Shown here one piece after another: positions 1,932-2,019 of a stretch of DNA of 17,352 nt. The stretch is from IMG/VR virus record IMGVR_UViG_3300032295_004069; one strand, 5' to 3'. Numbering within the stretch: the stretch's first letter is position 1; the number at the start of each line of letters is the position of its first letter. A program made the position numbers and the translations under genes. This stretch comes from a virus (lineage: Duplodnaviria; Heunggongvirae; Uroviricota; Caudoviricetes). A model generated the notes under the pieces. It was not told where the DNA came from, did no database searches, and worked only from the letters and a program-made list of their open reading frames with translations.

Positions 1932-2019
1932 TGGTTGGGAGTGGAGTCGAACCACTGGCTCACGGTTTTCACCCGCTGCTCTACCATAAATCCCGAAGAA
2001 TTACTGAGCTACCTCAACC
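1932..2019 (-). tRNA. Non-canonical tRNA-Phe(GAA)-like RNA with D-loop hairpin insertion; CCA not encoded
   Basis: Minus strand GGTTG(A)GG TA GCTC AGT[AATTCTTCGGGATTTAT]GGTA GAGC A GCGG GTGAAAA CCGT GAGCC AGTGG TTCGACT CCACT CCCAACC A. D-stem GCTC/GAGC, T-arm AGTGG-TTCGACT-CCACT, anticodon GAA at 1970-1968, own promoter at 2030-2061. Confidence 0.75.

Follow-up and report, generated by a model that had tools for sequence, protein, structure and literature searches.

A conserved tRNA-Phe-derived RNA with a fifth arm in T4-like lake phages and its possible role as a tRNA-Phe mimic

Large T4-like lake phages carry a small RNA gene in which an additional helix has been grafted into the D-loop of a tRNA body. 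Judging from its sequence, the armed RNA is a paralog of the phage's ordinary tRNA-Phe and is clearly derived from tRNA-Phe(GAA). The copy described here lies in a viral stretch of 17,352 nt (the window), and it is almost certainly a conserved gene under selection instead of a pseudogene or an assembly error. The family to which it belongs is real and conserved, and it is apparently undescribed, since a literature search, whose coverage excluded most subscription journals, turned up no paper on a tRNA-Phe mimic with an arm in the D-loop. It can tentatively be proposed that the RNA is a phage-encoded mimic of tRNA-Phe that would be recognised by the host but not used in decoding, most likely as a counter-defence decoy.

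Fold of the RNA and its surroundings

The features of the RNA and of the island in which it resides are as follows.

1932-2019, minus strand: tRNA-Phe-derived five-armed RNA gene, 88 nt (G1 = 2019, discriminator A73 = 1932)
2012-2019, minus strand: 5' acceptor strand, 8 nt, with the A at 2014 unpaired
1978-2009, minus strand: D-arm with a 4-bp stem (2009-2006 with 1981-1978), in the order A14, G15, insert, G18 G19 U20 A21 (1985-1982)
1986-2003, minus strand: D-loop insert; the fifth arm is the hairpin 2002-1989
1962-1976, minus strand: short anticodon arm, 4-bp stem and 7-nt loop with G32; GAA = 1970-1968
1940-1956, minus strand: canonical T-arm, 5 bp, UUCGA loop
1931-1939, minus strand: 3' acceptor strand, A73 and C74; CCA not encoded
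2030-2061, minus strand: Bacteroidota-type promoter (TTTG, 20-nt spacer, TAnnTTTG), 10 nt before G1
1901-1930, minus strand: AU-rich trailer hairpin followed by U's, a possible weak terminator or processing signal
2083-2162, minus strand: upstream island neighbour, a promoter (2162-2131) and a conserved hairpin RNA of approximately 46 nt
1550-1892, minus strand: downstream island neighbour, a promoter (1892-1861), a conserved RNA of approximately 300 nt and a terminator (1577-1556)

The original prediction described a cloverleaf with three departures from canonical tRNA, and reading the minus strand from 2019 to 1932 bears this out. Between G15 (2004) and G18 (1985) there are 18 nt, compared with approximately two in tRNAs, a net excess of 16-17, and the predicted insertion does fold at 2002-1989 as a hairpin with a UUCG loop on a 5-bp stem (four Watson-Crick pairs and one U-G). 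The extra unpaired A of the acceptor strand is found at 2014, the remaining seven pairs being perfect. The anticodon stem has the predicted four pairs and G32, and its arm comprises 16 nt instead of the usual 18, with a loop that reads G32 U33 G34 A35 A36 A37 A38. The D-stem and T-arm are intact, as had been stated, with all pairs present, and after A73 (1932) the genome reads C, G, A, with no encoded CCA. Thus, the RNA has the 7-bp acceptor, 4-bp D stem, 5-bp T stem and elbow bases of a tRNA, together with the G34, A35, A36 and A73 (and U20) of a tRNA-Phe, whereas it lacks both the decoding arm of a tRNA (5-bp stem, 7-nt loop, Y32 U33 R37), having 4 bp and G32, and the short unpaired D-loop, which is replaced by the 18-nt insert. 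It was also anticipated that standard scanners would miss such an RNA. Indeed, ARAGORN called no tRNA at 2019-1932 in the window, and the Rfam tRNA model gave 25 bits, under its 29-bit cut-off; with the insert deleted in silico, ARAGORN called tRNA-Phe(GAA) at its default score.

The RNA is the middle of three promoter-driven non-coding RNAs, and it belongs to islands in which small non-coding RNAs have promoters of the host type. The dedicated consensus promoter noted originally is of the Bacteroidota type (2061-2030) and is conserved upstream of close relatives of the window RNA. Four such sites occur in the window, compared with 0.69 expected, and three of them stand in tandem in the RNA island. 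Hairpins like the trailer at 1901-1930 are also found behind relatives of the window RNA, and a terminator scan of the window did not call this hairpin. The motif of the RNA of approximately 46 nt (2128-2083, minus strand; conserved purine-rich core, variable closing stem) lies 5' of 49 of the 53 variants of the window clade, while the start motif of the RNA of approximately 300 nt (1851-1550, minus strand; conserved and structured, with its own promoter and terminator) follows at least 36 of the 53. Nothing in Rfam matches either RNA. In six variants, the longer RNA begins 6 nt past A73 with no intervening promoter.

The RNA neighbours vary between clades, and no protein neighbour is conserved across clades. 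The RNA of the sister clade is accompanied by GOLLD, tmRNA and a YrlA-like RNA that scores below the cut-off (E 2.5e-6) and lies just upstream in 17 of 36 cases. At three loci (L541:1639-1734, L542:1704-1808 and L543:1876-1974, all minus strand), permuted tRNA mimics resembling YrlA (E 2.5e-6 to 2e-4, again below the cut-off) lie beside the armed RNA, and GOLLD follows approximately 600-900 nt downstream; no Ro60 gene was detected in these phages. On the plus strand of the window, a gene for a DNA/RNA non-specific endonuclease (2134-2820; PF01223, E 2e-39; signal-peptide-like start) reads away from the RNA island, and its start overlaps the first promoter region. It was considered as a constant neighbour of the RNA and rejected, as it is not constant across relatives. 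Other genes of the window include DUF2452 (4321-4707), cyclophilin (10952-11383) and M23 peptidase (14647-15249).

A conserved family with a fifth arm selected as a helix

Pattern scans of viral and metagenome contigs, which fixed the letters of the D-stem and T-loop as well as U20, and the main ones of which favoured Phe-type variable loops, gave 116 distinct matches, seven of which were removed as other things. The family comprises 109 distinct sequences in 196 locus matches, among which some contigs were fetched twice; the variants are related sequences, so the counts are not independent events. RNAs identical to that of the window occur in three other assemblies (L374, L401 and L446), and all ten loci that were reached via a neighbouring 189-aa protein, without the RNA pattern, carry the RNA, although several of these phages are near-identical. 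This identity, together with compensatory changes in the inserted stem, upholds the earlier argument that the RNA reflects neither decay nor sequencing error. A single copy was present in each of the 26 records searched.

Genome-level facts come from near-complete relatives of the window. The carriers are T4-like lake phages of approximately 310-360 kb, and the five near-complete ones tested (309-363 kb) all have a T4-type major capsid gene. No member was found in 401 Bacteroidota genomes (the Algoriphagus phylum), the one match being a tandem-tRNA artefact, and a scan of genome contigs was dominated by chance matches, with no cellular member among the loci examined. Among GenBank phages, there was no record covering 80% of the RNA length and no cultured carrier, and the RNA pattern was absent from three 635-640-kb phages with similar promoters. 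Some members lie on contigs of very different GC content (70% for L465, 49% for L438), so the design extends beyond a single phage group. A bulge at the same site of the acceptor marks the clade of 53 variants (U in 35, A in 14, C in three and G in one), whereas in another clade the bulge lies in the T stem instead. A tree of the 73-column core was poorly resolved, and its p-AU of 0.024, obtained with a mis-called duplicate and long branches included, speaks weakly against a single origin. One member (L328:2226-2316, minus strand) is labelled tRNA-Thr(GGT) by ARAGORN, an example of mis-annotation.

It is the pairing of the fifth arm that is conserved. Compensatory changes, which the original prediction proposed to seek in related phages, are indeed present: among 19 close variants, double-sided changes affect five of the six pairs, and the covariation was reached by none of 500 shuffles, a result inflated by the relatedness of the sequences. 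In the same comparison, 97.6% of stem cells are paired, compared with 31-51% in slid controls. Across the family, the 89 distinct inserts (12-33 nt) have a median folding z of -3.8, with 75% beating their own shuffles at p<=0.05. The description of the hairpin as an extra-stable motif was, by contrast, overstated. Alone, the window insert has a marginal -0.2 kcal/mol, the whole window RNA is no more stable than its shuffled versions (z -0.54), and C(UUCG)G is present in just 11 of 82 distinct inserts, which have more than 30 different loop sequences, so selection does not act on the UUCG loop. The fifth arm is thus selected as a helix and not as a sequence. A protein-binding arm, as suggested earlier, is doubtful in the form of a sequence-specific site because the pairing is kept while sequence and length (12-33 nt) are free. 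Kissing of the UUCG loop with GAA was likewise rejected, as the arm loop is not conserved.

Other unusual tRNA-like RNAs were encountered. Some GC-rich phage contigs contain tRNA bodies other than tRNA-Phe that carry D-loop hairpins (L153:9768-9863, L131:1267-1361 and L094:6612-6714, plus strand), the loop reading UUC in L153 and UCU in L131. Directly after a tRNA-Ser lies a 159-nt tRNA-like RNA whose D-loop bears a hairpin and whose variable region is very long (L334:2777-2935, plus strand). Several tRNA-framed RNAs (L541:2032-2108, L542:2237-2313 and 2556-2700, L543:2687-2773 and L326:5682-5802, all minus strand) have one shared acceptor stem and T-arm but unrelated interiors of 75-145 nt, in which an anticodon arm is not clearly recognisable. 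In others, such as L071, L124, L129 and L145, the arms are capped by tetraloops and an anticodon is absent.

Identity marks and decoding marks

GAA occupies the anticodon position in 111 of the 116 distinct matches, and the main patterns did not require it; a handful of members were obtained solely with scans anchored on GAA, and two scans had variable-loop letters that favour Phe-type bodies. All seven acceptor pairs are kept across the family, with many compensatory types, and A73 is present in 106 of the 109 variants, C74 in 108 and an encoded CCA in 12. The phenylalanine identity set that is strictly conserved consists of G34, A35, A36 and A73 (PMC9976931); U59, a Phe determinant in E. coli, is variable. 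It is therefore reasonable to assume that host proteins probably recognise the RNA as tRNA-Phe.

The marks of decoding have fared differently. Y32, U33 and R37 occur together in only 22 of the 109 variants, compared with 141 of 144 ordinary tRNAs of the same phages, a somewhat generous control in that ARAGORN scoring favours these bases. The anticodon arm ranges from 16 to 19 nt, with loops of 7 or 8 nt (8 nt in approximately 69 of 109) and a variable stem length; C33 is found in 28 variants and C37 in 27, and orthologous loci interchange 7- and 8-nt loops as well as A37 and C37. Arm spacing is canonical in 34 of 109 and the anticodon arm in 10 of 110, and just four variants are fully canonical cloverleaves apart from the D-loop arm. 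Positions 33 and 38 are pairable in 98 of 109, compared with 86.7 +/- 2.3 when shuffled, a count that includes a C33-G38 clade. Taken from these sequences, it appears quite probable that the RNA is not an ordinary decoder.

Compared with canonical tRNA-Phe(GAA) (RF00005), the armed RNA shares the acceptor, D and T stems, the elbow bases, the Phe-type variable loop, G34-A35-A36 and A73. It differs in the fifth helix, in its 16-19-nt anticodon arm with 7- or 8-nt loops, in breaking the Y32/U33/R37 rule in 80% of variants, in the acceptor or T-stem bulge of two clades, and in coexisting with an ordinary copy. Indeed, a separate cloverleaf tRNA-Phe(GAA) with a 7-nt loop is present in nine of ten near-complete genomes (three of the nine near-identical), mostly within the main tRNA cluster and tens of kilobases from the RNA; the tenth, G003, has a reduced tRNA set in which no tRNA-Phe was found, and the RNA is still kept. 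At five more loci, the ordinary tRNA-Phe and the armed RNA stand side by side. The ordinary phage tRNA-Phe already has loop variants, such as G37. In the sister clade, it has a non-standard T-loop and D-loop along with G37 (L327:9505-9578, L538:11677-11750 and L539:11132-11205, minus strand), so neither tRNA-Phe copy is still of the host type.

No phage-encoded partner protein was recognised. A TROVE/Ro60 gene was found in none of ten phage records and RtcB in none of five phage genomes, and a search of carrier phages for PheRS alpha, FDX-ACB, L/F-transferase and CDPS found none; a PolyA_pol/CCA-type domain is present in only three of eight genomes. Any partner is therefore probably a host protein or one that was not recognised.

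Possible functions

Since the identity marks are kept and the codon-reading shape is lost, the RNA is probably a decoy or a charged mimic and not a translator. Under the reading tentatively preferred here, host RNA polymerase would transcribe the RNA early from its own promoter, the transcript would fold into the tRNA L-shape, and host enzymes would trim it and add CCA. Through G34-A35-A36 and A73, the set read by PheRS, it would be taken for tRNA-Phe and probably charged, while normal decoding would be barred by the bulges, the elbow-side helix, the changed arm length and an anticodon loop that drifts. In what is the weakest step, the decoy may occupy a host defence enzyme that recognises tRNA-Phe (an anticodon nuclease or an acceptor-end toxin), remaining uncut and unused, and would thereby protect the working tRNA-Phe pool. 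The rapid change of the bases around a constant GAA is suggestive of conflict. Judging from promoters alone, the host would be of the Bacteroidota type, and a tRNA-Phe-specific defence enzyme in it is putative. Bacterial anti-phage tRNases are common, a Schlafen leaving cleavage marks on tRNA-Phe(GAA) among others (PMC13056530), and human SAMD9, which has a related bacterial-type nuclease domain, cuts tRNA-Phe (10.1101/2025.05.19.654893). However, phage answers to tRNases have so far been non-cleavable working tRNAs and not decoys (PMC11464382). Of the decoy or scaffold that the original prediction offered, the mimic part fits; the counter-defence part we, too, infer. The full proposition, that a jumbo-phage five-armed RNA is matured, barred from decoding and neutralises a tRNA-Phe-targeting defence in a mode distinct from non-cleavable working tRNAs, is doubtful as a whole.

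The other possibility first raised, a cleavage-resistant variant that translates, is less supported because decoding geometry is not conserved and the phages own a separate tRNA-Phe. In this case, a second tRNA-Phe would decode UUC/UUU once the host and ordinary phage copies were destroyed, the odd loop and arm blocking the nuclease. The RNA retains the 3' end and every Phe identity element, four members are canonical besides the D-loop arm, and other tRNA bodies (L153, L131) combine such an arm with a normal anticodon arm. Moreover, anticodon stem-loop changes allow phage tRNAs to evade tRNases, as in T5 tRNA-Lys against PARIS AriB (PMC11464382), T5 tRNA-Tyr against retron PtuAB, and mycobacteriophage tRNAs against VapC (PMC10264068), and the same selective pressure is plausible here. 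Nonetheless, these are canonical cloverleaves that replace a lost host tRNA, whereas the armed RNA has an extra arm and has lost its decoding geometry. Stems of 4 bp, such as that of the window, can function, but in the published cases a pair is unpinned and no bases are lost (PMC13092985), whereas the window arm is short of two bases and stem length varies across the family. The 8-nt loops, C33 and C37 are nearly absent from ordinary tRNAs of the same phages, and variants such as G37 are already available on the ordinary phage tRNA-Phe. A working second tRNA-Phe, although the strongest competitor of the decoy reading, is thus unlikely.

It is distinctly unlikely that the RNA is a PheRS ligand with a non-defence role, either as a charged donor of Phe that would serve a host aminoacyl-transferase outside the ribosome or as a sponge tuning PheRS, EF-Tu or the stringent response. 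The marks that survive are precisely those of aminoacylation, those of decoding having gone, and precedents are offered, within the accessible parts of the sources, by the non-proteinogenic tRNA-Gly of staphylococci (PMC4574755) and by irregular tRNAs that are charged yet not used in translation (PMC5389517). Against this stand the failure to find a phage L/F-transferase or cyclodipeptide synthase, the lack of a protein neighbour conserved across clades, and the fact that a phage need for such a ligand is not evident.

Alternatively, the RNA might serve as a module of its island, with the loop acting as a GAAA/GAAC tetraloop that docks on a neighbour or with the fold recruiting RNase P and 3' nucleases to separate co-transcripts. 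The excess of pairable 33-38 is suggestive, as are the longer RNA that starts 6 nt past A73 without a promoter and the upstream YrlA-like RNA of the sister clade. However, the 33-38 signal stems from few lineage events, GAA is constant while neighbours change between clades, cutting needs no GAA, C37 breaks GNRA in 27 variants, and the window-clade RNA is a stand-alone unit with its own promoter, which makes this role quite improbable.

That the insert is an intron, the removal of which would leave a near-normal tRNA-Phe, is very improbable. Archaeal tRNAs have introns at non-standard positions, and removing the insert restores the ARAGORN call; yet the 82 inserts have no conserved junction or bulge-helix-bulge motif and are too short for self-splicing, no phage-encoded RtcB was found in the five phage genomes searched, and the acceptor and anticodon-arm anomalies would persist after removal. 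A pseudogene or assembly error, which the three joint anomalies and the low Rfam score might suggest, is effectively refuted by conservation, namely the identical RNAs in other assemblies, the loci reached via the neighbouring protein and the paired, compensated stem.

With regard to known systems, the closest functional counterpart of the armed RNA may, by analogy, be the irregular tRNAs of Mukai et al. (PMC5389517) that are charged but untranslated. As far as the accessible part of that source describes them, allo-tRNAs and irregular tRNA1/E-loop tRNAs are likewise odd cloverleaves, some with five-stem junctions and some charged but untranslated. They have an 8/4 or 9/3 acceptor branch and a Sec-like long variable arm and come from Acidobacteria, whereas the armed RNA, found in jumbo phages, has a 7/5 branch, a 5-nt variable loop and its extra arm in the D-loop, and on these features it is not an allo-tRNA. 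YrlA Y RNAs (RF02553; PMC4201824) and tmRNA are also tRNA mimics with a D/T elbow that occur in phages, and they lie adjacent to the armed RNA in the sister clade. Unlike them, it is not permuted and has an open acceptor end and an anticodon-like loop, with no Ro60-binding stem or tag reading frame; the YrlA model gave no match in the window at E<=5.

The presence of tRNA genes in phages has long called for an explanation, and those now offered assume translation. An extra tRNA-Phe paralog, kept by a whole phage group, in which identity and decoding marks are separated provides approximately 100 natural variants for testing non-translational roles. It also illustrates that the D-loop can accept a grafted helix without release of the tRNA core from selection. 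Armed tRNA genes escape standard annotation or are mislabelled by it, as they were missed in the window and called tRNA-Thr in a relative.
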